A DNA stretch of 64,000 bases. Origin: Escherichia phage BEU50. Of the stretch, positions 5,447 through 30,348 are shown one piece after another. Position numbers and translations under genes: made by a program. Under the pieces are notes generated by a model. The model ran no database searches. It saw only the letters and a list, made by a program, of their open reading frames with translations, and was not told the DNA's origin. The stretch lies in sequence record OM632671.1. The stretch is one strand, 5' to 3'. Position 1 is the stretch's first letter, and each line of letters starts with the position of its first letter.

Positions 5447-6070
5447 GTTACTTACATCATCAAAGCTTCTGAAAACGCTCTGAATGAAAAAACTGCTGCA
5501 ATAATGGTTTATATCATTAAGAACAACTTCACCACTGCTGCCAATGTCCGTGAAGCTCTGGAAGCGGAATACAATGCATCGGTTGTTAACTCTAACATTG
5601 GTGTATTGATTAAGAAAGGTTTAGTCGAAAAATCCGGTGATGGACTTGTAGCAACAGGCGAAGCAATGGATATTATCCAAAAAGCTGCAGACCTATTTGC
5701 TCAAGAAAATGCTCCAGAACTTCTTCAGAAACGTAACACTAGAAAAGCACGTGGAGTTACTCCTGAAATGCATGAATTAGCAAACTTTGTTTTTGAAAAT
5801 ATTAAAGATAAAGTTGAAGTTAAAGAAATTGGTGAAAACCGTAGTAACTTGGAAGTTCGATTTGCAAAACGAGTTCTAGGTATTCGTCAGATCGAAATTC
5901 GTCGAGATGGTTCTCTTAGAATCTTTGCATACAACATGTCAGAAACTGAATCAAAGCTGTTTACTTCTCTTGAAAATGATGTTAAGATTAAGATCGGTGG
6001 TAAATATACTTACATTGACTTCCCTAATGTGTCCAAAGAAATCATTACCCTTGTAACTAACGTACTGTGA
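5438..6070 (+). CDS. motA: Middle transcription activator MotA
   Basis: 210 aa, N-terminus MSKVTYIIKAS and overall similarity to T4 MotA (211 aa). Confidence 0.85.
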   Translation: MSKVTYIIKASENALNEKTAAIMVYIIKNNFTTAANVREALEAEYNASVVNSNIGVLIKKGLVEKSGDGLVATGEAMDIIQKAADLFAQENAPELLQKRNTRKARGVTPEMHELANFVFENIKDKVEVKEIGENRSNLEVRFAKRVLGIRQIEIRRDGSLRIFAYNMSETESKLFTSLENDVKIKIGGKYTYIDFPNVSKEIITLVTNVL

Positions 6071-6080
6071 GGAATACATA

Positions 6081-6410
6081 ATGAATAAGCTGAATATTAT
6101 TAACGAACTTCGTAAATGTGCAGAACCTACTCAGGAAGGATGGGATATTTGGTACCACGGGGCTTATTTAGGGACAATTGTAAAGATTAAAGCAGGCCAA
6201 TATATGGTTATTCGTGAAAATAATGACGCGCCATTTGGCCTTCGTAAAAACTACATGGCAGCGATCAGTTCATTTGTTGATGCAGCTTACGAAATTTATA
6301 AAGAAGATTATAAAGAATATCAGCAGTCACAACCGGTTATTCGTTCGATTGGTGTAAATAAACAAGCACAAAAATCTATTTGGCAACGTATTAAAGGATG
6401 GTTTAAATGA
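6081..6410 (+). CDS. Hypothetical early protein
   Basis: 109-aa ORF, RBS GAGGAATACATAATG. Confidence 0.5.
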
Positions 6411-6868
6411 AAACTTTTAAAGAACGTTTAGCTCTGTTAGATAAAGCTTTGTCGCGTGAGACTCCGGAAAGTCTGGCCGCTAAATTAGCTTCTTACGGCG
6501 GTGAATATACAGAACAAAATGTTTTAGATGAAGTTCCTGAAATCTGTTGGCAGACTCTGTATTGGGATGAAAACCAAAAGTACCAACGACGAATTGTCTG
6601 TGCAGCCAACCGTTTTAAATTAAAAGATGGACGAACTCTTATTATTCCAGGTGCTCGTCATTACTCTAAAGATATGGCTGAAGTACTTGATATAGTTGGT
6701 CCTCAATTAGTCTCGCAGCAAGTTTGTGGCGACGACCAAGGCTTTATCGATCAATACTCTAATTACTGGACTCGTGAAGAAGCAATGATTATTGCAACTT
6801 ACGCTGGACAAGTACGTATTGAACGTGGTGGTAATGAAAAAGAACTTTACTCTGAGGACCTTTACTAA
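6407..6868 (+). CDS. Hypothetical early protein
   Basis: 153-aa ORF, start overlaps previous stop (ATGA coupling). Confidence 0.5.
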
Positions 6869-20868: not shown

Positions 20869-21771
20869 ATGTTTAAACGTAAATCTACTGCTGACCTCGC
20901 TGCTCAAATGGCTAAACTGAACGGTAACAAAGGTTTCTCTTCAGAAGATAAAGGCGAATGGAAGCTGAAGCTAGATGCATCAGGTAATGGTCAAGCGGTA
21001 ATTCGTTTCTTGCCAGCAAAAACTGATGATGCACTACCATTTGCAATTCTTGTTAACCACGGTTTCAAGAAAAATGGTAAATGGTATATTGAAAATTGCT
21101 CTTCTACACACGGCGATTATGACTCTTGTCCTGTATGTCAGTACATTAGTAAAAATGACCTGTACAATACCAACAAAACTGAATATTCTCAACTGAAACG
21201 TAAAACTTCTTATTGGGCTAATATTCTGGTTGTTAAAGACCCACAAGCTCCAGATAATGAAGGTAAAGTATTCAAATATCGTTTCGGTAAAAAGATTTGG
21301 GACAAAATCAATGCAATGATTGCAGTCGATACTGAAATGGGTGAAACTCCTGTTGATGTAACTTGCCCATGGGAAGGTGCTAACTTTGTGCTGAAAGTTA
21401 AACAGGTTTCTGGTTTCAGTAACTACGATGAATCTAAATTCCTGAATCAATCTGCGATTCCAAACATTGATGATGAATCTTTCCAGAAAGAATTGTTCGA
21501 ACAAATGGTTGACCTTTCTGAAATGACTTCTAAAGATAAGTTCAAATCGTTTGAAGAATTGAATACTAAATTTAATCAAGTTCTTGGTACTGCCGCTCTT
21601 GGTGGTGCAGCAGCCGCAGCAGCTTCTGTTGCAGATAAAGTTGCTTCTGACCTTGATGATTTTGATAAAGACATGGAAGCCTTTAGTTCTGCAAAAACTG
21701 AAGATGACTTCATGAGCTCTACCTCATCCTCTGATGATGGCGACCTCGATGACCTGTTAGCTGGTCTATAA
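20869..21771 (+). CDS. 32: ssDNA-binding protein gp32
   Basis: 300 aa, [23 protein letters not shown]..., acidic C-terminus; T4 gp32 301 aa. Confidence 0.9.
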
Positions 21772-21777
21772 TAAATT

Positions 21778-21800
21778 GGGAGACTTCGGTCTCCCTTTTG
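21778..21800 (+). terminator. Intrinsic terminator (GGGAGAC-TTCG-GTCTCCC plus T-run)
   Basis: Perfect stem-loop with UUCG loop then TTTT after gene 32. Confidence 0.6.
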
Positions 21801-21826
21801 AGTATCTGTAAATTGCCGAAAAAGTT

Positions 21827-21858
21827 GTTTACTTCTTCCCTGGATGTGTTACTATAGA
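21827..21858 (+). promoter_or_regulatory. Early promoter cassette (GTTTAC, TGtgTTACTAT)
   Basis: GTTTAC 21827-21832; -10 TACTAT 21850-21855; downstream leader identical to 2510-2545. Confidence 0.55.
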
Positions 21859-21884
21859 CCTATCAACAACATGAGGAAATCAAA

Positions 21885-22277
21885 ATGGAAATCGGAAAAT
21901 CTTATATCATTAACCCTTTATTTAAAGATGACTTTGTTCAAGAAGCACCACACAATAACGCTAAGATGTTAAAATTGATTGAGCTCCACGGGCCCAGTTT
22001 TGTTGTAAACGGAATGGAACCTGATTATGATAGCGATACGCCAAACGTAGTAAGTGTAACTATGGAAGATGGTACTGTATGTTCTGCCGGTGGTGAAATT
22101 GAAACTTATTTTGAGATTTATCCTGACGAGTTCAAATACTTTACTGAGGTAGATTTAGTAAAGTCTCAAACTACTAACGAAGGTATAGCTTTAGGTGTAA
22201 CAAAAATCCATTGTATCGTAGATGAAACCAACGTCGACGAAATCATCAATCTTTTGCAAAAAACTTTTAAAAAGTAG
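21885..22277 (+). CDS. Hypothetical protein (frd.3 position)
   Basis: 130-aa ORF between gene 32 and frd. Confidence 0.5.
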   Translation: MEIGKSYIINPLFKDDFVQEAPHNNAKMLKLIELHGPSFVVNGMEPDYDSDTPNVVSVTMEDGTVCSAGGEIETYFEIYPDEFKYFTEVDLVKSQTTNEGIALGVTKIHCIVDETNVDEIINLLQKTFKK

Positions 22278-22314
22278 TGTACAATCAGATAGGGTTATGT
22301 TATAGTAGCCCTAT
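22277..22314 (+). promoter_or_regulatory. Early promoter cassette with inverted repeat (GTGTAC, TGtTATAGT)
   Basis: -10 TATAGT 22301-22306 between GATAGGGTTA and TAGCCCTATC arms. Confidence 0.5.
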
Positions 22315-22338
22315 CAAATAAAAGTGAAGGAGAATAAA

Positions 22339-22581
22339 ATGAGATTGCAACGCCAGAGTATCAAAGATTCTGAAGTTAGAGGTAAATGGTACTTCAACAT
22401 CGTTGGTAAAGATGTTGAACTCCTTGAACAAGCCGAAGAAGCTTTACGTGAAATGGGTTGGAACGAAGAATGTGATGGATGTCCACTCTACGAAGATGGT
22501 ATATCATCCGGATTCTGGATTTATCACTCGGATGTCGACCAATTTAAAGCTGATTGGAAAATTGTGAAAAAGTCTGTTTGA
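22339..22581 (+). CDS. Hypothetical protein
   Basis: 80-aa ORF from ATG 22339 with GGAGAATAAAATG context. Confidence 0.45.
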   Translation: MRLQRQSIKDSEVRGKWYFNIVGKDVELLEQAEEALREMGWNEECDGCPLYEDGISSGFWIYHSDVDQFKADWKIVKKSV

Positions 22582-22590
22582 GAAAATACA

Positions 22591-22842
22591 ATGAAAACAC
22601 TAAATTTACTTAAGGTTGGGGAAGACATAGATATTGCTGATATCTACAAAAATCTAACTTATTATGATAATTTATTTGTCGTTCAAACCTTAAATGGCGA
22701 TTATTATACGGTTTCTTTAGTGCGAAATAAATTTAAAAACAAATTTTACTTTTGTATTTATAATTATCATGGCCAACGCTCTAGCAATTATATTGAACCG
22801 TCTGACATATTTTATATTGAGGAATTAAAATGCTTAAATTAG
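22591..22842 (+). CDS. Hypothetical protein
   Basis: 83-aa ORF preceding frd. Confidence 0.45.
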   Translation: MKTLNLLKVGEDIDIADIYKNLTYYDNLFVVQTLNGDYYTVSLVRNKFKNKFYFCIYNYHGQRSSNYIEPSDIFYIEELKCLN

Positions 22843-23417
22843 TATTCGCATGTGCCCCATCTAAAACAGTTGATGATAAACTGGAATATGCTTTTGGATT
22901 AGGTGATGGACTTCCATGGAAGCATATCAAACAAGATATGAGTAACTTTGTTGCTCGCACTAAAAACACTGTAATGGTTATGGGTGCTAAGACTTTTGCA
23001 TCATTACCTCGTCTACTCCCAGATCGTACTCATGTGGTTGTCACTGATATGGCCAGAAAACTGCCTAGGACTAAAACCAACGAACTTGCACGGTTCTATA
23101 TCACCCAATCTGAATTTATTACCTTGGTAACAGGTGGTGAAATTAACCTGTTTAGCCCTGCAACTGACGTACCGTTTAAACTTTCTACTGAACATGTTGA
23201 TGTATCTGTTATTGGCGGCCCAGCTCTGTTGAAACAAGCACTGCCTTATGCCGATGAAATCGTGATGACTAAAATCATTAAGAAATGTCGTGTTAATTCC
23301 GATGTTCAACTTGATAAAGATTTCGTCCAAGATATTATGCTTCAACGTTCTATGGTAGAATCTCATTACTACAGAATCGATGAACTCACCGAAATTACTG
23401 AGAGCGTGTATAAATGA
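22830..23417 (+). CDS. frd: Dihydrofolate reductase
   Basis: 195 aa, DHFR fold motifs; T4 frd 193 aa; synteny. Confidence 0.9.
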   Translation: MLKLVFACAPSKTVDDKLEYAFGLGDGLPWKHIKQDMSNFVARTKNTVMVMGAKTFASLPRLLPDRTHVVVTDMARKLPRTKTNELARFYITQSEFITLVTGGEINLFSPATDVPFKLSTEHVDVSVIGGPALLKQALPYADEIVMTKIIKKCRVNSDVQLDKDFVQDIMLQRSMVESHYYRIDELTEITESVYK

Positions 23418-23962
23418 AACATTATCAATACCTGATTAATGATATCCTAGAAAATGGCTACGAAACAGACGACCGTACAGGCACAGGAACAATTGCCCTG
23501 TTCGGAACTAAATTACGTTGGGACCTGACTAAAGGATTCCCTGCAGTAACAACTAAGAAATTAGCATGGAAAGCTTGTATTGCCGAACTACTGTGGTTCA
23601 TGTCTGGTTCTACCAATGTTAATGATTTGCGTATTCGTACTCATGGTAGTCTTATTCAAGGTAAAACTATTTGGGACGACAACTATGAAAATCAGGCAAA
23701 AGACCTTGGATATCATAGCGGCGAACTTGGTCCTATTTATGGTAAGCAATGGCGTGATTTTGGTGGTGTAGACCAATTGGTCAAAACTATCGACCGTATT
23801 AAAGCTCTTCCTAATGATCGTCGTCAAATAGTTTCTGCATGGAACCCAGCCGAAATTGACCAAATGGCTCTTCCTCCTTGCCATATGTTCTATCAGTTCA
23901 ATGTGCGTAATGGTCATCTTGATTTACAATGGTATCAACGCAGTGTAGATGTTTTCTTAGGT
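23414..23962 (+). CDS. td: Thymidylate synthase, exon 1
   Basis: 183 codons ending ...VDVFLG; intron follows, beginning TAATTTAGGCC as in T4 td. Confidence 0.85.
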
Positions 23963-24978
23963 TAATTTAGGCCTAGGTATAAGGTGACTTATACTTGTAA
24001 TCTATCTAAACGGGGGACCTCTCTAGTAGACAATCCCGTGCTAAATTGTAGGACTACCCTTTAATAAATACTTCTATATAAAAAGAGGTGTTTATGAAAA
24101 GCGGAATTTATCAGATTAAAAACACTTTAAACGGTAAAGTGTATGTTGGAAGTGCTAAAGATTTTGAGAAAAGATGGAAGAGACATTTTAAAGACCTTGA
24201 AAACGGTGTTCACTCTTCTATAAAATTTCAAAGGTCTTTTAATAAACATGGTAATGTTTTTGAATGCTCTGTACTGGAAGAAATTCCATATGAGAAAGAT
24301 TTGATTATTGAACGAGAAAATTTTTGGATTAAAGAGCTAAATTCTAAAATTAATGGATATAATATTGCTGATGCGTCTTTTGGCGATGTGCTTTCAAATC
24401 ATCCATTAAAAGAAGAAATTGCTAAGAAACGAGCTGAAACTGTTAAAGCTAAGATGCTTAAGCTTGGTCCTGATGGTCGGAAAGCTCTTTATGGTAAACA
24501 CGGAAGTAAAAATGGCCGATGGAATCCAGAAAACCACAAGTTTTGTAAATGCGGTGTTCGCATACCATCTTCGGCCGATACTTGTGGAAAGTGCCGAAAA
24601 CGTTCAGGTGAAAATAACCCGTTCTTTAATCACAAACATTCAGAAAAAACTAAAACTAAACTATCTGAAAAGATGAAAGGCAAAAAGCCAGCTAACATCA
24701 AAAAGATTTCATGCGATGGGATTATTTTTGAATGTGCAGCCGATGCGGCTAGACATTTTGAAATTTCATCAGGATTAGTTACTTACCGTGTAAAATCTGA
24801 TAAGTGGAATTGGTTCTACATAAATGCCTAACGACTATCCCTTTAGGGAGTAGGGTCAAGTGACTCGAAACGATAGACAACTTGCTTTAACAAGTTGGAG
24901 ATATAGTCTGCTCTGCATGGTGACATGCAGCTGGATATAATTCCGGGATAAGATTAACGACCTTATCTGAACATAATG
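23963..24978 (+). ncRNA. Group I self-splicing intron in td
   Basis: Sequence closely resembles the T4 td intron 5' and 3' ends (UAAUU.AGGCCU...UAUAAGGUGACUUAUACUUG ... ACAUAAUG); exon 1 plus exon 2 give a 286-aa protein, the T4 td length. Confidence 0.85.
24094..24831 (+). CDS. I-TevI: I-TevI-like GIY-YIG homing endonuclease (intron-encoded)
   Basis: 245 aa from ATG 24094; GIYQIKN...KVYVGS GIY-YIG motif, zinc finger CKCG...CGKC, C-terminal HTH; near-identical in architecture to T4 I-TevI. Confidence 0.85.
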   Translation: MKSGIYQIKNTLNGKVYVGSAKDFEKRWKRHFKDLENGVHSSIKFQRSFNKHGNVFECSVLEEIPYEKDLIIERENFWIKELNSKINGYNIADASFGDVLSNHPLKEEIAKKRAETVKAKMLKLGPDGRKALYGKHGSKNGRWNPENHKFCKCGVRIPSSADTCGKCRKRSGENNPFFNHKHSEKTKTKLSEKMKGKKPANIKKISCDGIIFECAADAARHFEISSGLVTYRVKSDKWNWFYINA

Positions 24979-25290
24979 CTGCCGTTCAACATTGCCTCGT
25001 ACGCTGCCTTGACGCATATTGTAGCGAAGATGTGTAATCTTATCCCGGGTGATTTAGTGTTCTCAGGCGGCAACACGCATATCTACAGCAATCATGTAGA
25101 ACAATGCAAAGAAGTTCTTCGTCGTGAACCTAAAGAGTTATGTTCTCTTGAAATTAATTGGCCTAGTAATTTTGAGAATTGGCCTACAAAAATCCAAATG
25201 GACTGGGTTACTGGAACGATGACACATTCTGATTTCGTTCTTAAAAATTACGAATCTCATCCAACTATCAAAGCTAAAATGGCGGTATAA
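24979..25290 (+). CDS. td: Thymidylate synthase, exon 2
   Basis: Begins LPFNIASYAALTHIVAKMCNLIPGD..., ends KMAV; continues td frame after intron. Confidence 0.85.
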   Translation: MPFNIASYAALTHIVAKMCNLIPGDLVFSGGNTHIYSNHVEQCKEVLRREPKELCSLEINWPSNFENWPTKIQMDWVTGTMTHSDFVLKNYESHPTIKAKMAV

Positions 25291-25545
25291 ATGATTTTAC
25301 GTTTTATTAATTCATATGGCACCACAATTTTTGAAATGAAAAATCCTACCGAACTAGATATCCCTTCACCAAATAGTGAAATCACAATTAAAGGTGAACG
25401 ATTCATTTGTTATTCACATGAACGAATTTATGAATATCGTGAATTTTGTGGTGGTTACGGTATGGAAAAAGAACCATTGGTTTATTTCAATATCACAGTC
25501 TTGACACCTAAAGAATACGAAGAAATTATTGCTGAGGATAATTAA
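25291..25545 (+). CDS. Hypothetical protein
   Basis: 84-aa ORF directly after td. Confidence 0.5.
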   Translation: MILRFINSYGTTIFEMKNPTELDIPSPNSEITIKGERFICYSHERIYEYREFCGGYGMEKEPLVYFNITVLTPKEYEEIIAEDN

Positions 25546-25574
25546 CGCTTCAGTTTAAAAGTGTATAATAAATT

Positions 25575-25597
25575 AACGGGATAAATACTATCCCGTT
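25575..25597 (+). other. Perfect 9-bp inverted repeat (AACGGGATA/TATCCCGTT) upstream of HNH gene
   Basis: Arms 25575-25583 and 25589-25597 with 5-nt spacer; TGTATAAT -10-like box at 25562-25569. Confidence 0.4.
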
Positions 25598-25620
25598 GAT
25601 ACTACAAAGTGGATTATACT

Positions 25621-26256
25621 ATGGATTATTTAAAAATATATAAAAACTTGGTAAATAAAGAAAGAAATTTTGAAGATATAGATGGTGAATGGCATCATAT
25701 AATCCCAAAATGTTTAGGTGGCACCAATGAGTCATACAATCTAGTTAAATTAACATATTCAGAACATTATTTGGCTCATCTTCTTTTATTAAAAATATAT
25801 CCGAACAATTTAGGTTTAGCAACCGCGGTTAATTTAATGAGTTCTAGAAATAATAAAGAATTTGGATGGACTAGAGCAAAAATGGTTGATTTGCTTAAAG
25901 GGCGAAAATTAGACCAAAAAACAAAAGATAAAATATCTCGTTCCAAACTAGGACATGTTAAATCTGAAGAGACTAAAGAAAAGATACGAAATTCTTTATT
26001 AGGTAAAAAACGTGGACAATACAATATAAAAATTAAATCAAAAATTTCTAAAGGAGTCCCATTAAAAGAATCAACTAAGCAAGCTATTTCTAATGCTATG
26101 ATAGGAGCTAAGAATCCATTTGCAAAGAAAGTAATTATAAACGACGTAATATATGATACATTAAATGAAGCGTCAATAATTTTATCTATGAGCACCCAAA
26201 CGGTTAGACGCCGTCTAAAATCATCAAATTATCCAACATGGAATTATTATGTATAA
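25621..26256 (+). CDS. Free-standing HNH homing endonuclease
   Basis: HNH motif EWHHIIPKCLGGTNESYNLVKLTYSEHYLAH; two NUMOD3-like repeats (KDKISRSKLGHVKSEETKEKIRNSLLGKK); C-terminal HTH-like tail. Confidence 0.7.
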   Translation: MDYLKIYKNLVNKERNFEDIDGEWHHIIPKCLGGTNESYNLVKLTYSEHYLAHLLLLKIYPNNLGLATAVNLMSSRNNKEFGWTRAKMVDLLKGRKLDQKTKDKISRSKLGHVKSEETKEKIRNSLLGKKRGQYNIKIKSKISKGVPLKESTKQAISNAMIGAKNPFAKKVIINDVIYDTLNEASIILSMSTQTVRRRLKSSNYPTWNYYV

Positions 26257-28513
26257 TTTTAAAGTAGTGAAAAATTCAGGTGTATCCCAAAATTTTGATG
26301 CACAGAAAATTATTCAAGTCTTAACTTGGCAATGTGAAGGAACACAAATTGACCCATATGAATTGTACGAAGAAATTAAGACCCATCTTGTCGATGGTAT
26401 GAGCACCAAAGATATTCAGAAGATTTGTATTAAAGTTGCAGCTAACTCGATTTCTGTCGAAGAACCTGATTATCAGTATGTCGCCGCCAAAGGGCTAATG
26501 TTTGCACTTCGTAAAGATGTATATGGGCAGTTTGAACCTCCTGCTTTTATCGACCATATCTCGTATTGTGTTAATGAAGGCAAATACGACCCTGAGTTGT
26601 TGTCTAGATATTCTGCAGAAGAAATCATTTATCTCGATTCACAGATTAAACATGAACGAGACTTTGACCTGACTTATGCTGGTGCTATGCAGCTTAAAGA
26701 AAAATATCTAGTTAAAGATAAAACAACTGGGAAGATTTATGAAACTCCACAGTTTGCTATCATGGCTATTGGCATGGCCTTACACCAAGACGAAACTCAT
26801 GACCGTTTGAAACATATTATTCGTTTTTATGATGCCGTTTCTACTCATCAAGTTTCATTGCCAACCCCAATTATGGCAGGTGCTCGTACTCCGACTCGCC
26901 AGTTCTCTAGTTGTGTAGTTATTGAAGCCGGTGATTCGTTAAAATCTATTAACAAAACTTCAGCATCAATTATTGAATATATTTCTAAACGAGCTGGTAT
27001 CGGTATCAACGTTGGTATGCTTCGTGCAGAAGGTTCTAAGATCGGTATGGGTGAAGTTCGACATACGGGTGTTATTCCATTCTGGAAACATTTCCAAACT
27101 GCAGTAAAATCTTGTTCTCAAGGTGGTATTCGTGGTGGTGCTGCTACAGCGTATTATCCGATGTGGCACTTAGAAGTAGAGAACCTATTAGTTCTGAAAA
27201 ATAACAAAGGCGTGGATGAAAACCGTATTCGACATATGGACTACGGAATTCAGATTAATGACCTCATGATGGAACGCCTTGGTAAAAATGATTATATTAC
27301 TTTATTTAGCCCTCACGAAATGTCAGGCGAACTATACTACTCGTTCTTTGAAGATCAAGATAAATTCCGTGAGCTTTATGAGAAAGCTGAAAAAGACCCA
27401 ACAATCAGAAAGAAAAGAATCAAAGCACTAGAACTCTTTGAATTGTTCATGACTGAACGTTCTGGCACCGCTCGAATTTATCCGCAATTCGTTGATAACA
27501 CGAACAACTACACTCCATTTATTCGTGAAAAAGCTCCAATTCGTCAGAGTAACTTATGTTGTGAAATCGCTATTCCAACTAATGATGTGAATGGTCCTGA
27601 TGCTGAAATTGGTTTATGCACATTATCTGCATTCGTGTTAGATAAATTTGATTGGCAAGACCAAGATAAAATTAATGAACTTGCTGAAGTACAAGTACGT
27701 GCACTTGATAACCTGTTAGACTATCAAGATTATCCGGTTCCAGAAGCTTTAAAAGCTAAAAAGCGTCGAAACCTCGGCGTTGGTGTTACGAACTATGCTG
27801 CATGGTTAGCTTCTAACTTCGCTTCATATGAAGACGCTAACGATTTGACTCATGAATTGTTTGAGAGATTGCAATATGGCCTTATCAAAGCATCAATCAA
27901 ACTCGCCAAAGAAAAAGGATGTTGCGAGTATTATTCAGACACTAAATGGTCTAGAGGCGAATTACCTATCGACTGGTACAATAAAAAGATTGACCAAATC
28001 GCAGCCCCGAACTACGTCTGTGACTGGGAAGAACTTCGAGCTGAACTCAAAGAACATGGAATTCGTAACTCAACGTTGTCTGCACTCATGCCTTGTGAGT
28101 CAAGCAGTCAAGTATCGAACTCTACAAACGGGATTGAGCCCCCACGCGGTCCAGTAAGTATTAAAGAATCTAAAGAAGGCAACTTCCGTCAGGTTGTTCC
28201 TAATATCGAACATAACATGAGTCTTTACGATTATGCGTGGAAACTTGCTAAGAAAGGTAATAAACCTTATTTGACCCAAGTTGCTATCATGTTGAAATGG
28301 GTGTGCCAATCTGCTTCTGCTAATACTTACTATGACCCTGCAGTATTTGAGAAAGGTAAAGTGCCAATGTCAGTAATGCTTGACGATCTACTTTACTTCT
28401 GGTACTTTGGCGGAAAAAACCTCTACTATCATAACACTCGTGATGGGTCTGGTACAGACGACTATGAATTAGAAACACCTAAAGCAGAAGATTGTTCTGC
28501 TTGTAAGCTTTAA
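26249..28513 (+). CDS. nrdA: Ribonucleotide reductase large subunit NrdA
   Basis: 754 aa, class Ia RNR alpha motifs (NLCCEIAIP, GxGxxN); T4 NrdA 754 aa. Confidence 0.9.
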   Translation: MYNFKVVKNSGVSQNFDAQKIIQVLTWQCEGTQIDPYELYEEIKTHLVDGMSTKDIQKICIKVAANSISVEEPDYQYVAAKGLMFALRKDVYGQFEPPAFIDHISYCVNEGKYDPELLSRYSAEEIIYLDSQIKHERDFDLTYAGAMQLKEKYLVKDKTTGKIYETPQFAIMAIGMALHQDETHDRLKHIIRFYDAVSTHQVSLPTPIMAGARTPTRQFSSCVVIEAGDSLKSINKTSASIIEYISKRAGIGINVGMLRAEGSKIGMGEVRHTGVIPFWKHFQTAVKSCSQGGIRGGAATAYYPMWHLEVENLLVLKNNKGVDENRIRHMDYGIQINDLMMERLGKNDYITLFSPHEMSGELYYSFFEDQDKFRELYEKAEKDPTIRKKRIKALELFELFMTERSGTARIYPQFVDNTNNYTPFIREKAPIRQSNLCCEIAIPTNDVNGPDAEIGLCTLSAFVLDKFDWQDQDKINELAEVQVRALDNLLDYQDYPVPEALKAKKRRNLGVGVTNYAAWLASNFASYEDANDLTHELFERLQYGLIKASIKLAKEKGCCEYYSDTKWSRGELPIDWYNKKIDQIAAPNYVCDWEELRAELKEHGIRNSTLSALMPCESSSQVSNSTNGIEPPRGPVSIKESKEGNFRQVVPNIEHNMSLYDYAWKLAKKGNKPYLTQVAIMLKWVCQSASANTYYDPAVFEKGKVPMSVMLDDLLYFWYFGGKNLYYHNTRDGSGTDDYELETPKAEDCSACKL

Positions 28514-28567
28514 GACTTTTTATTATAATTTACTCATGGATGAGTTAATAACTAAGTGAGAAATATA

Positions 28568-29218
28568 ATGAGTACAGTTTTTAACACACAACAAGTCGAT
28601 GTTTTGAATGAACCGATGTTCTTTGGTTCTGGTCTTGGCCTCGCACGGTATGATATTCAGCGTCATAAAGTTTTTGAAGAGCTTATCGAAAAGCAGCTCT
28701 CGTTCTTTTGGCGTCCCGAGGAAGTAAACTTGATGTTGGATTCGGCCCAGTTTAATAAGCTTCCACAGTTCCAACAGGACATCTTTACCAACAACCTTAA
28801 GTATCAATCATTATTAGATTCTATCCAAGGTAGAGCACCATCTGCGGTACTTATGTCATTGCTTTCAGACCCTTCATTAGATACATGGGTTGCTACATGG
28901 ACTTTCAGTGAAACTATTCACTCTCGTTCATATACTCATATTATGCGAAATCTTTATACAGATCCATCGAAGGTGTTTGATGAGATTGTATTAGATGAAG
29001 CTATTATGAAGCGTGCCGAATCTATCGGACGATATTATGATGATGTTCTGGTTAAAGCTCGTTATTGGGAAAACGCTAAAGAATTTGTAGAATTAGCTAA
29101 AGAATCTCCTGATGCCGACTTTCGTTTAAACCAAGCTATTAAACAAGAAGCCGAAGCTAAACGTGCTTTAATGAAATCTCTTTACCTCTGTTTGCACGTT
29201 ATTAATGCCTTAGAAGCT
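28568..29218 (+). pseudogene. nrdB: nrdB 5' fragment (ribonucleotide reductase small subunit, truncated after codon 217)
   Basis: MSTVFNTQQVD... through LYLCLHVINALEA matches class Ia R2 up to the conserved NALEA; expected continuation (IRFY...) absent; frame then runs through antisense gene 23 sequence. Confidence 0.75.
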
Positions 29219-29518
29219 AACCATACCCATAACTGCTGGCCCAATCTGGGTTACTGCACCAGAGGTTTGACCTGCTGCGATGTTCTGAGCATTATAACCG
29301 TGGTCACCACCAATTTCAGCTTCGGTCAAGAAAGAACCAAATGCCTGAGCGATTTTCTCGTCTTTATATTCAGGGGATACTTCGAAATCTTTTTCCTGGT
29401 TTTCGAAGATTTTAGCGATAATAGCCTGCTTGCTATTAGCGATTTCCGGCAGGCCTTCACCTTCCAGCAGTTCTTTCCATTTGTCTACGAGCTGAGCTTT
29501 AGTTTTGATAGTAGTCAT
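29219..29518 (-). pseudogene. 23: Major capsid protein gp23 N-terminal fragment (first 100 codons only)
   Basis: MTTIKTKAQLVDKWKELLEGEGLPEIANSKQAIIAKIFENQEKDF...GPAVMGMV matches T4 gp23 residues 1-100, then SF-stop where T4 continues RRAIPNL; no remainder of gene 23 in the window. Confidence 0.8.
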
Positions 29519-29535
29519 TTGTGTTAACCTTTAAA

Positions 29536-30348
29536 TTAGAAACGAGATGCGACTTTCGCATATAAACTTACATTAGAATTCTGTTCTACCTGAGTTGTGG
29601 TAGTGTCAACTGCTTCGGCAACAAAATTAAGACCGGCAGCGTCATTGTCAACTGTATTTATACTTTCGGTAATAGCGGCTTCTTCTTTAGTAGAACCTTT
29701 AACCATTTCTACAATAGCAGTTAACTTAGTACCAAATGCGTCAGAATAATCCATACCTTCAACCAGGCCAATAACTTTTTCTTTCTGAGATTCAGTCAGG
29801 TCTTTTACGCTTTCATTAATAGCGGTTTCACGCTGAACGTAATTGATATATGCATCACGTTTGGTAACTTCTTCGAACAATCGAGCGGTTTCTTCTTTAT
29901 GTTCGGCCAGCTCTTCTTCCATTTCTGCTACAACATCTACAGATTCTTCTGGAACAACAACGTTATGTTCAACAAACAGTTCTTTCAGACCACCAAGCAT
30001 GGATTCGAACAAATCAGCTTTAATGCCTTTATCAACTGCGATTTGGTTTTCTGCGAGCCATTCTTTTGCAAGATGGTCTAGGAATTTAGAAGCTTGTTCA
30101 GCCAATTTTTTATCAGCTTTCTCTTCAGCATCTTCTTTAGCCTTTTCAACTTCTTCTTCGGCCTTTTCGGCGATGGCTTTGATATGAGATTCAGCCAGTT
30201 TGACTGCTTCCTGCTTAACGGTGGCTTCGAATACAGTGCTGAAATTAGCTTTAACGTCCGGAGACAGTTCTACTGATTCGAAAACACTATTAAGAGCAAC
30301 TGAAGTCTCGATGTTCTGAGCTTCTTTCAAAAGTTGTTCTTTGATCAT
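29536..30348 (-). CDS. 22: Prohead scaffold protein gp22
   Basis: 270 aa, acidic coiled-coil-rich; synteny upstream of 23. Confidence 0.85.
   Translation of the reverse strand: MIKEQLLKEAQNIETSVALNSVFESVELSPDVKANFSTVFEATVKQEAVKLAESHIKAIAEKAEEEVEKAKEDAEEKADKKLAEQASKFLDHLAKEWLAENQIAVDKGIKADLFESMLGGLKELFVEHNVVVPEESVDVVAEMEEELAEHKEETARLFEEVTKRDAYINYVQRETAINESVKDLTESQKEKVIGLVEGMDYSDAFGTKLTAIVEMVKGSTKEEAAITESINTVDNDAAGLNFVAEAVDTTTTQVEQNSNVSLYAKVASRF

Follow-up and report, generated by a model that had tools for sequence, protein, structure and literature searches.

What a nuclease-like open reading frame (ORF) is doing directly upstream of nrdA, the gene for the large subunit of ribonucleotide reductase, and how it came to stand behind a perfect hairpin, is the question raised by the locus analyzed here. 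The DNA studied was a stretch of 64,000 nucleotides (nt) of Escherichia phage BEU50 (record OM632671.1; hereafter the window), an RB69-like member of the T4-type phages (genus Mosigvirus). Genome mosaicism in T4-like phages is shaped by free-standing homing endonucleases, which also determine the markers that prevail when different phages infect together. A first-pass annotation, made from the letters of the window, had proposed a free-standing HNH homing endonuclease gene at this place. The results supported this proposal: the ORF is intergenic, its product of 211 amino acids (aa) matched PHROG 655 ('homing endonuclease') with an expectation value (E) of 8e-45, and it is present in some relatives and absent from others. 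It is a typical, uncharacterized representative of a kind of mobile gene well known in phages, and we put the probability that it is a free-standing HNH homing endonuclease gene, active now or in the recent past, at roughly 70%.

The ORF is flanked by nrdA.2, from which it is separated by 75 base pairs (bp), and by nrdA (Table 1). It had been placed between td and nrdA, which held on the nrdA side; its direct left neighbour, by contrast, is nrdA.2 and not td. Its intergenic rather than intronic position was borne out, the adjoining nrdA ORF being uninterrupted (754 aa). No interrupted host gene surrounds the ORF, which sets it apart from the intron-encoded HNH class exemplified by I-HmuI and I-TevIII. 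The program-made ORF listing began it at a GTG (25609-26256), and the in-frame ATG at 25621, which yields the protein of 211 aa, is the start annotated in GenBank relatives. In annotated records of carriers the product is labelled 'homing endonuclease' or 'HNH homing endonuclease', and 'group I intron endonuclease' in WFL6982 and WFK.

The HNH motif of the protein, GEWHHIIPKCLGGTNESYNLVKLTYSEHYLAH, falls within residues 20-60 and follows the pattern HHIIPKCxGG..N..EH...H. Residues H25, H26, P29, K30, G34, N40, E48, H49 and H53 were invariant in an alignment of 45 sequences (the protein and 44 homologues), in agreement with the canonical motif read in the first pass. An AlphaFold model with a mean predicted local distance difference test (pLDDT) score of 79 and a predicted template modelling (pTM) score of 0.48 contained strands 23-26 and 41-44 and helix 46-59, with a pLDDT of about 90 there. 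The Pfam HNH_5 match was weak (E 0.036, below the cut-off); the conserved histidine, the asparagine and the metal-ligand histidine of HNH endonucleases are nevertheless all in place and point to membership of this class. Downstream of this head, three NUMOD3-like repeats were read by eye from the translation, so that the presence of such repeats stood and their number, given before as two, did not. Pfam found one NUMOD3 (residues 111-130, E 1.4e-3, below the gathering score), and homologues of the same architecture scored NUMOD3 above Pfam's threshold. The C-terminal part scored 25.0 bits (E 1.8e-5) with I-TevI_DNA-bd (PF20987), for which the Pfam cut-off is 27 bits, and the best structural match of the protein was the I-TevI DNA-binding domain, in line with the helix-turn-helix-like tail noticed earlier. 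Structure searches with the whole model returned weak scores, the chain being elongated and the orientation of its domains arbitrary, and were used only as support for domain identity. The protein would be expected to nick or cleave DNA in a metal-dependent manner, and its gene to be mobile.

To be a mobile gene, the ORF should differ in occurrence between relatives, and a comparison of the td-nrdA region across them had been set beforehand as the test. Region 25200-26400 of the window matched 154 phage records at 90-99% identity, nearly all of them Escherichia or Shigella phages of the genus Mosigvirus. The analysis of presence and absence rests on these GenBank phage records, about 154 related to the RB69-like region, because searches of IMG/VR gave so little: the HNH protein found no relative there, and NrdA.2 retrieved one locus only. 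The HNH gene was found in 11 of the 154 records (a20, NRG-P0074, ECO111 5-P, WFL6982, WFK, AV109, AV114, AV115, AV116, AV118 and SSE1) and was absent from RB69 and 142 others, a clear presence/absence polymorphism. The remaining alleles of the slot comprised a bare spacer in about 119 records and, in 24, a T4-like nrdA.1 that replaces the spacer carrying the promoter and the hairpin; 3 of these 24 have an extra ORF of 73 aa. Alternative alleles of the slot are seen in phages moha (L006, 2755-3060) and AV117 (L007, 2749-3272).

The limits of the inserted DNA were defined by pairwise alignment with RB69, in which identity extended to T25597 and resumed at G26279, in codon 11 of nrdA. Relative to most relatives the cassette is thus an insertion-replacement, and the 56 bp of RB69 that it replaces consist of 35 bp of spacer, including the GAGGA Shine-Dalgarno sequence of nrdA, and nrdA codons 1-7. 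Boundaries were identical, and the ORF was full length, in all nine carrier genomes aligned; a further copy, in a public sequencing-run assembly, occupies the same slot between nrdA.2 and nrdA. At its right end the cassette provides nrdA codons 1-10, reading MYNFKVVKNS where RB69 has MQVTKSS; this segment is homologous to nrdA N-termini and equal in length to that of T4, MQLINVIKSS. Because the right end of the cassette carries these ten diverged but homologous nrdA codons, the HNH gene probably stood immediately before nrdA in the donor as well, and the crossover on the right would have fallen inside nrdA. Apart from near-identical carrier copies and one metagenomic cluster, no protein of at least 60% identity was found in 50,697 phage records or among the hits listed from a collection of 5.8 billion proteins; the donor is for this reason regarded as unsampled.

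Variation among the nine carriers distinguished the cassette from its surroundings. Nucleotide diversity in the cassette was 0.0070, fourfold lower than the 0.028 in the 622 bp on its left and the 0.031 in the 682 bp on its right, and carriers were already diverse within 60 bp on the left and 40 bp on the right. Differences between the nine copies of the ORF amounted to 6 synonymous and 5 non-synonymous changes. The flanks of carriers matched differing non-carrier haplotypes: those of WFL6982 resembled mogra, those of ECO111 resembled RB69 on the right, and those of the window resembled JK45 and UKE1. This pattern fits a recently spreading, still functional homing endonuclease gene. Like free-standing genes of the mob/seg class of T4-like phages, the gene is intergenic, is present or absent with constant boundaries, and has a more recent origin than the backbone haplotypes in which it resides, to which it is not linked. 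Its distribution is independent of that of the td and nrdB introns, too: in SSE1 the HNH gene stands alone, WFL6982 has the HNH gene and the nrdB intron, the window, a20 and the AV phages have all three, and G2469 carries both introns without the HNH gene. The first-pass view that two different mobile endonucleases inhabit the td-nrd locus was in this respect correct, the I-TevI homologue 1.5 kb upstream being genuine.

The hairpin that precedes the gene was confirmed as a perfect 9-bp inverted repeat, AACGGGATA and TATCCCGTT, with a 5-nt loop; its stem can be extended to 12 bp at 92%, and its sequence is single-copy in the window. A bare hairpin is not rare, perfect stems of at least 9 bp numbering 7 in the window against 2.6 ± 1.6 in shuffled sequences, and the significance of this one comes from its conservation across genomes, not from its structure alone. 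The 60-bp block 25538-25597, which holds the hairpin and a predicted promoter, was invariant, bar two single-base indels, in 18 genomes, including ATK48 and LF82-2, whose adjoining flank (nrdA.2) is about 10% diverged. The promoter admits two readings, either a MotA-box-like AACGCTTCA (25544-25552) followed by an 11-nt spacer and TATAAT (25564-25569), or a sigma-70 promoter TTAACG-16-TATAAT (25542-25569), with 10 of 12 matches in a sigma-70 scan. Both elements had been predicted in RB69 by Nolan et al. 2006 (PMC1524935), as a middle promoter at 143239-143278 (Pm:143278; Additional file 4) and as a TransTerm terminator 'nrdA<--nrdA.2' at 143221-143239 (Additional file 6), which map to 25538-25577 and 25577-95 of the window, respectively. 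Because they are identical in RB69, which lacks the cassette, hairpin and promoter are not part of the element; they belong to the backbone of the recipient.

This bears on the idea that the hairpin is a regulatory or boundary structure of the element's own, brought in together with the endonuclease gene. In favour of this, the hairpin adjoins the cassette boundary and precedes the ATG by 24 nt, leader hairpins control many phage homing endonuclease genes (PMC2988022), and in td-linked homologues described below strong hairpins sequester the Shine-Dalgarno sequence and the AUG (L027: -28.3 kcal/mol, z -5.75). However, hairpin and preceding promoter are base-for-base the same in RB69 and other genomes devoid of the gene, the hairpin was annotated as a terminator of RB69 as early as 2006, and it includes neither the Shine-Dalgarno sequence nor the AUG of the HNH gene; an additional helix, in which GUAUAAU of the -10 box pairs with AUUAUAC immediately before the AUG, occurred in the minimum-free-energy fold only and not in the centroid fold. 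An origin with the element is refuted by the gene-less alleles, and we give this idea almost no credence. The earlier suggestion that the hairpin marks the insertion boundary held insofar as the cassette starts at the next base.

As to the function of the hairpin, a transcript begun about 7 nt past the -10 box would start at its base, and it could attenuate read-through from td and nrdA.2 and act as a 5' stabilizer. On the plus strand the stem is followed by UUGAUAC in the window allele and by UUUGGAG in RB69, so that the U-tract which in rho-independent terminators directly follows a GC-rich stem is absent; a simple scan called the hairpin terminator-like on the minus strand only. Read on that strand (25597-25575), it is followed by the T-rich tail AATTTATTAT and could end antisense transcripts on their way into nrdA.2 and td. 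Rfam, scanned over 21000-30000 with a limit of E ≤ 0.1, matched nothing there and missed the td group I intron too; for the position of the HNH gene outside an intron this is weak evidence, and it has no bearing on the hairpin. In the cassette-free allele of RB69 a GGAG stands 3 nt past the hairpin (L001, 3400-3403), and the cassette junction (25598) removed it. The RegB endoribonuclease of T4 cleaves early mRNAs at GGAG.

The cassette leader is short. Because only 23 nt of cassette precede the ATG, the HNH gene probably has no promoter of its own, and the sole Shine-Dalgarno-like element in these 23 nt is a weak GGA (25611-25613). Homology of this leader with that of RB69 nrdA (both contain TATACT..GGA.TAT) was considered and rejected, since 317 of 1000 shuffled sequences scored as well against the whole cassette; the colinear comparison of the first 60 nt was marginal (33 of 1000) and was not used. 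The hexamer CCGTTG at the left junction (window 25589-25598) occurs also upstream of td-linked HNH genes (L027, 2960-2975; L024, about 350), where UCCGU of this region pairs with the start-codon AUGGA, and in an allele carrying a GIY-YIG gene (L084, about 2680). It may be a relic, a microhomology junction or a product of chance, the last being plausible.

The features described suggest the following mechanism. A promoterless Mob-type cassette (25598-26278) would have been placed between the resident nrdA promoter and hairpin on one side and nrdA on the other, where the resident promoter (25538-25577) and read-through out of td and nrdA.2 would drive its transcription, with the weak ribosome-binding site keeping translation of the endonuclease low. 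The protein would bind DNA through its helix-turn-helix and NUMOD3 helices and nick or cut the cassette-free allele near the insertion point, in the replaced 56 bp at the nrdA start or in the adjoining invariant sequence, and recombinational repair off a co-infecting carrier genome would then copy the cassette in. The arrival of the cassette in this lineage is best pictured as recombination with a donor that already carried the gene directly upstream of nrdA. Thereafter nrdA would probably be co-transcribed with the endonuclease gene, and possibly coupled to it in translation, in which case selection would favour keeping the HNH ORF open.

The case for coupling comes from the new start of nrdA. 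With GAGGA gone, only a GGA lies six bases upstream of the nrdA ATG; and because nrdA has lost GAGGA and its ATG overlaps the stop of the HNH ORF (ATGTATAA), NrdA synthesis is probably coupled to translation of the endonuclease. The region targeted and this coupling are both held with less confidence than the activity of the gene as a homing endonuclease. More tentatively still, and as a possibility that we consider doubtful, the cassette may have made itself hard to lose: by removing the ribosome-binding site and seven codons of nrdA and substituting a start of its own, it would have rendered NrdA dependent on transcription and translation of the endonuclease, the enzyme at the same time belonging to a clade that exchanges HNH and GIY-YIG heads on an I-TevI-type tail and occupies slots beside td and nrd genes. 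If this is true, the usual dependence of a homing endonuclease gene on its host gene is reversed, and the element has a means of persistence independent of continued homing.

A number of observations weigh against an active homing endonuclease with a target at the nrdA start. No study of the 211-aa protein was found in the searchable literature, and the probable coupling of NrdA to the HNH ORF is read from sequence alone. Neither carrier-specific single-nucleotide polymorphisms (SNPs) nor co-conversion tracts were found in 622 bp on the left and 2.2 kb on the right, for which reason polymorphism does not locate the cut site; if homing is the cause of the distribution, the break must lie very near the insertion point. 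Low diversity of a cassette present in several backbones could also be expected if a recent insertion had been spread by nothing but general recombination, which is very active in T4-like phages. Finally, the closest relatives of the same architecture are linked to td and not to nrdA. One alternative is an inactive or domesticated remnant that no longer homes, is kept by linkage because the nrdA start depends on it, and owes its patchiness to ordinary recombination and loss. The featureless flanks would agree with this, as would the low frequency of the gene (11 of 154 records), the constraint on precise loss created by the replaced Shine-Dalgarno sequence and start of nrdA, and the fact that several T4 mob genes have no demonstrated activity (PMC2988022, Table 1). 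Yet all nine copies are full length and retain all the invariant catalytic residues, synonymous changes are at least as many as non-synonymous ones, and the common ancestor of the cassettes is much younger than that of their flanks, as expected of a spreading and not of a decaying element; a remnant is accordingly judged quite improbable.

The other alternative, that the enzyme targets td, arises because enzymes with the same tail sit at a slot adjacent to td. Four full-length homologues of the same architecture (P0004, P0012, P0016 and P0020; 29-34% identity over 98-99% of the protein), which are all those whose context was looked up, are encoded on contigs of uncultured phages, each 44-65 nt after a thymidylate synthase gene. 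Eighty related td loci were fetched from IMG/VR (L037-L116), and in the 71 with enough downstream sequence this slot, here 44-66 nt past td, held an HNH gene in 9, a GIY-YIG gene in 31 (two types, 15 and 16) and nothing in 31. The five td-slot enzymes scanned, two HNH and three GIY-YIG, scored 27.9-40.6 bits with I-TevI_DNA-bd, above Pfam's threshold. HNH and GIY-YIG heads thus appear combined with a common type of DNA-binding tail at this slot, a pattern that reads as nuclease-head swapping. By analogy, the I-TevI-type tail of the protein from the window would recognize td sequence about 0.3-0.6 kb to the left, and the enzyme might assist the mobility of the td intron, the role that MobE plays for the nrdB intron (PMC2790892 provides this precedent of homing in trans); the td intron is indeed found in 8 of the 11 records with the HNH gene and in roughly 12 of the 143 without it. 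Against a td target, a cut in td would bring co-conversion of nrdA.2 along with the cassette, yet diversity among carriers is highest in nrdA.2 (0.047 at 25376-25575, at least five haplotypes), and the nrdA codons at the right end of the cassette imply that the donor copy adjoined nrdA. The metagenomic relatives, moreover, come from one group of related phages and are not independent, and the isolates in which gene and intron occur together include close relatives (the AV109-118 series). A td target is for us an unlikely reading, and a homing endonuclease acting near the nrdA start is preferred.

Table 1. Features of the td-nrdA region in the window (all on the plus strand).
Feature	Positions	Strand	Remarks
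Gene 32	20869-21771	+	
frd	22830-23417	+	
td exon 1	23414-23965	+	
I-TevI homologue	24088-24831	+	GIY-YIG, I-TevI zinc-finger and I-TevI DNA-binding domains; between the two td ORFs
td exon 2	24976-25290	+	
nrdA.2	25291-25545	+	DUF5496
Resident predicted promoter	25538-25577	+	Backbone, outside the insertion; identical in RB69
Resident hairpin	25575-25597	+	Perfect 9-bp stem, 5-nt loop
Inserted cassette	25598-26278	+	681 bp, replacing 56 bp of the RB69-type allele
HNH endonuclease ORF	25621-26256	+	211 aa, ATG start
HNH ββα-metal core (predicted)	25687-25797	+	Residues 23-59; catalytic residues invariant, AlphaFold model
Three NUMOD3-like repeats, TKxxI(S/R)xxxxG	25921-26106	+	Residues T101-G111, T118-G128 and T152-G162; read by eye from the translation
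I-TevI-type helix-turn-helix DNA-binding domain (predicted)	26098-26247	+	Residues 160-209
Substitute nrdA start from the cassette	26249-26278	+	ATG overlaps the HNH stop, ATGTATAA at 26249-26256
nrdA	26249-28513	+	Ribonucleotide reductase large subunit; downstream host gene

The td group I intron of the window (23966-24975) contains the intact I-TevI homologue, is 99.4% identical to a td record of phage TuIa and about 89% identical to that of T4, and is absent from RB69. The first four bases of exon 2 (24976-24979) co-vary with it, being ATGC in intron carriers and GGCC, GGTC or similar elsewhere, which looks like a co-conversion footprint. Intron and HNH gene lie 0.8 kb apart, and the DNA between them comprises at least five haplotypes among carriers. 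Their co-occurrence was observed in samples that are not independent (the AV109-118 series; a20, NRG-P0074 and the window) and could reflect shared ancestry, co-transfer or helper homing.

Over the td-nrdB stretch of Mosigvirus at least five separately occupied endonuclease slots were recognized: the td intron, the HNH gene before nrdA, a gene splitting nrdA, a MobE-type gene between nrdA and nrdB, and the nrdB intron. The third is exemplified by AV111 (L015, 4435-7594), in which nrdA consists of two ORFs separated by the gene for an HNH endonuclease of 236 aa (5905-6615), whose first 99 residues are 47% identical to the protein of the window. This split nrdA is of the same kind as the 'gene in pieces' arrangement described for Aeromonas phage Aeh1. 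At position 29219/29220 of the window, nrdB ends about 25 nt short of the position at which the group I intron starts in a20 and WFL6982, and is fused to codon ~100 of gene 23 (minus strand), after which genes 22, 21 and 20 follow, onward to gene 5. In orientation the joined parts are colinear with the T4 map, but some 30 kb, essential genes among them, are absent, and no phage record spans the junction, which most likely represents a misassembly or concatenated contigs and not a viable genome.

The HNH gene is one more occupied slot in this crowded cluster, and SSE1, which carries only this element, forms with RB69, which carries none of the five, a clean experimental pair. Beyond routine annotation, the locus offers a host gene whose translation start was replaced and, in the kin at the td slot, nuclease-head swapping as it occurs in nature; neither alters the present understanding of how such elements work.

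The arrangement can be compared with several known systems. In having a promoter and a stem-loop in an intergenic spacer, at a slot of variable content, it resembles the PeSL and PmSL cassettes of T4-type phages (PMC2839356, PMC4122927). It differs from these in that the promoter-plus-stem unit and the hairpin are each single-copy in the 64 kb, with up to 3 mismatches allowed, which led to rejection of a repeated PeSL-type family, and in that its stem-loop is downstream of the -10 box, whereas the PeSL stem-loop usually lies between -35 and -10 or over the -10. I-HmuI, the HNH nicking endonuclease of Bacillus phage SPO1 (PDB 1u3e), is intron-encoded, unlike the free-standing gene studied here, and showed 16-18% identity in structural alignment; a PDB sequence search gave no match to I-HmuI at E ≤ 1, and the I-TevIII-like ORF in the nrdB intron of WFL6982 had no significant similarity to it (E 0.19). 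With the DNA-binding domain of I-TevI (PDB 1i3j and 1t2t; PF20987), residues 150-209 align over the minor-groove helix and the helix-turn-helix, with 27-32% identity in structural alignments; I-TevI has, however, a GIY-YIG head and a zinc finger, in place of which the protein of the window has an HNH head and no I-TevI zinc finger.

The td-adjacent enzymes are the closest in build, sharing the three-module architecture end to end, the start MDYLKIY, the C-terminal N(F/Y)PTW and a free-standing position in a cluster of nucleotide-metabolism genes. They differ in adjoining neither nrdA.2 nor nrdA, in length (249-274 aa, against 211 aa in the window) and in possessing a strong leader hairpin over the Shine-Dalgarno sequence and the AUG, which the cassette of the window lacks. 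Burial of these signals in a leader hairpin is the classical control of T4 endonuclease genes (PMC2988022), and most leaders of occupied td slots (L037-L116) have ATATTTATA(T/A) in or beside the hairpin covering the ribosome-binding site and the AUG, which looks like promoter-in-hairpin control.

T4 MobE, whose gene lacks a promoter and relies on transcription from upstream, introduces a nick in nrdB close to that gene and homes during co-infection (PMC2790892; reviewed in PMC2988022). The interval from nrdA to nrdB is occupied by genes of its type in VEc20, a T4-like phage, and in the Mosigviruses mogra (L020, 6689-7387) and LF82-2 (L021, 6598-7239); residues 1-167 of the protein from the window are 33-37% identical to the proteins of mogra and LF82-2 (E 1e-23 to 5e-26) and 32% to that of VEc20. 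Of the families proposed for comparison in the first pass, MobE gave a sequence match, whereas I-HmuI gave none at E ≤ 1 and the I-TevIII-like ORF of WFL6982 no significant one. Both MobE and the protein of the window are encoded by free-standing genes of the nrd cluster, have an N-terminal HNH motif followed by NUMOD3-like repeats, and share a start/stop overlap with an adjacent nrd gene (PMC2790892, PMC2988022). Use of upstream transcription, shown experimentally for mobE (PMC2790892), would be a further common trait. By contrast, the slot of mobE is between nrdA and nrdB and that of the present gene upstream of nrdA; the start of mobE overlaps the nrdA stop, whereas in the window the nrdA start overlaps the endonuclease stop; in a scan the present gene had no internal terminator; and MobE ends in a zinc-finger-like C-terminus (CPHCGKK...C), whereas the similarity breaks off at residue 167 and an I-TevI-type helix-turn-helix follows. 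The surmise that this insertion is distinct from mobE thus proved sound, and the gene is best regarded as a distant paralogue of mobE and not its orthologue.

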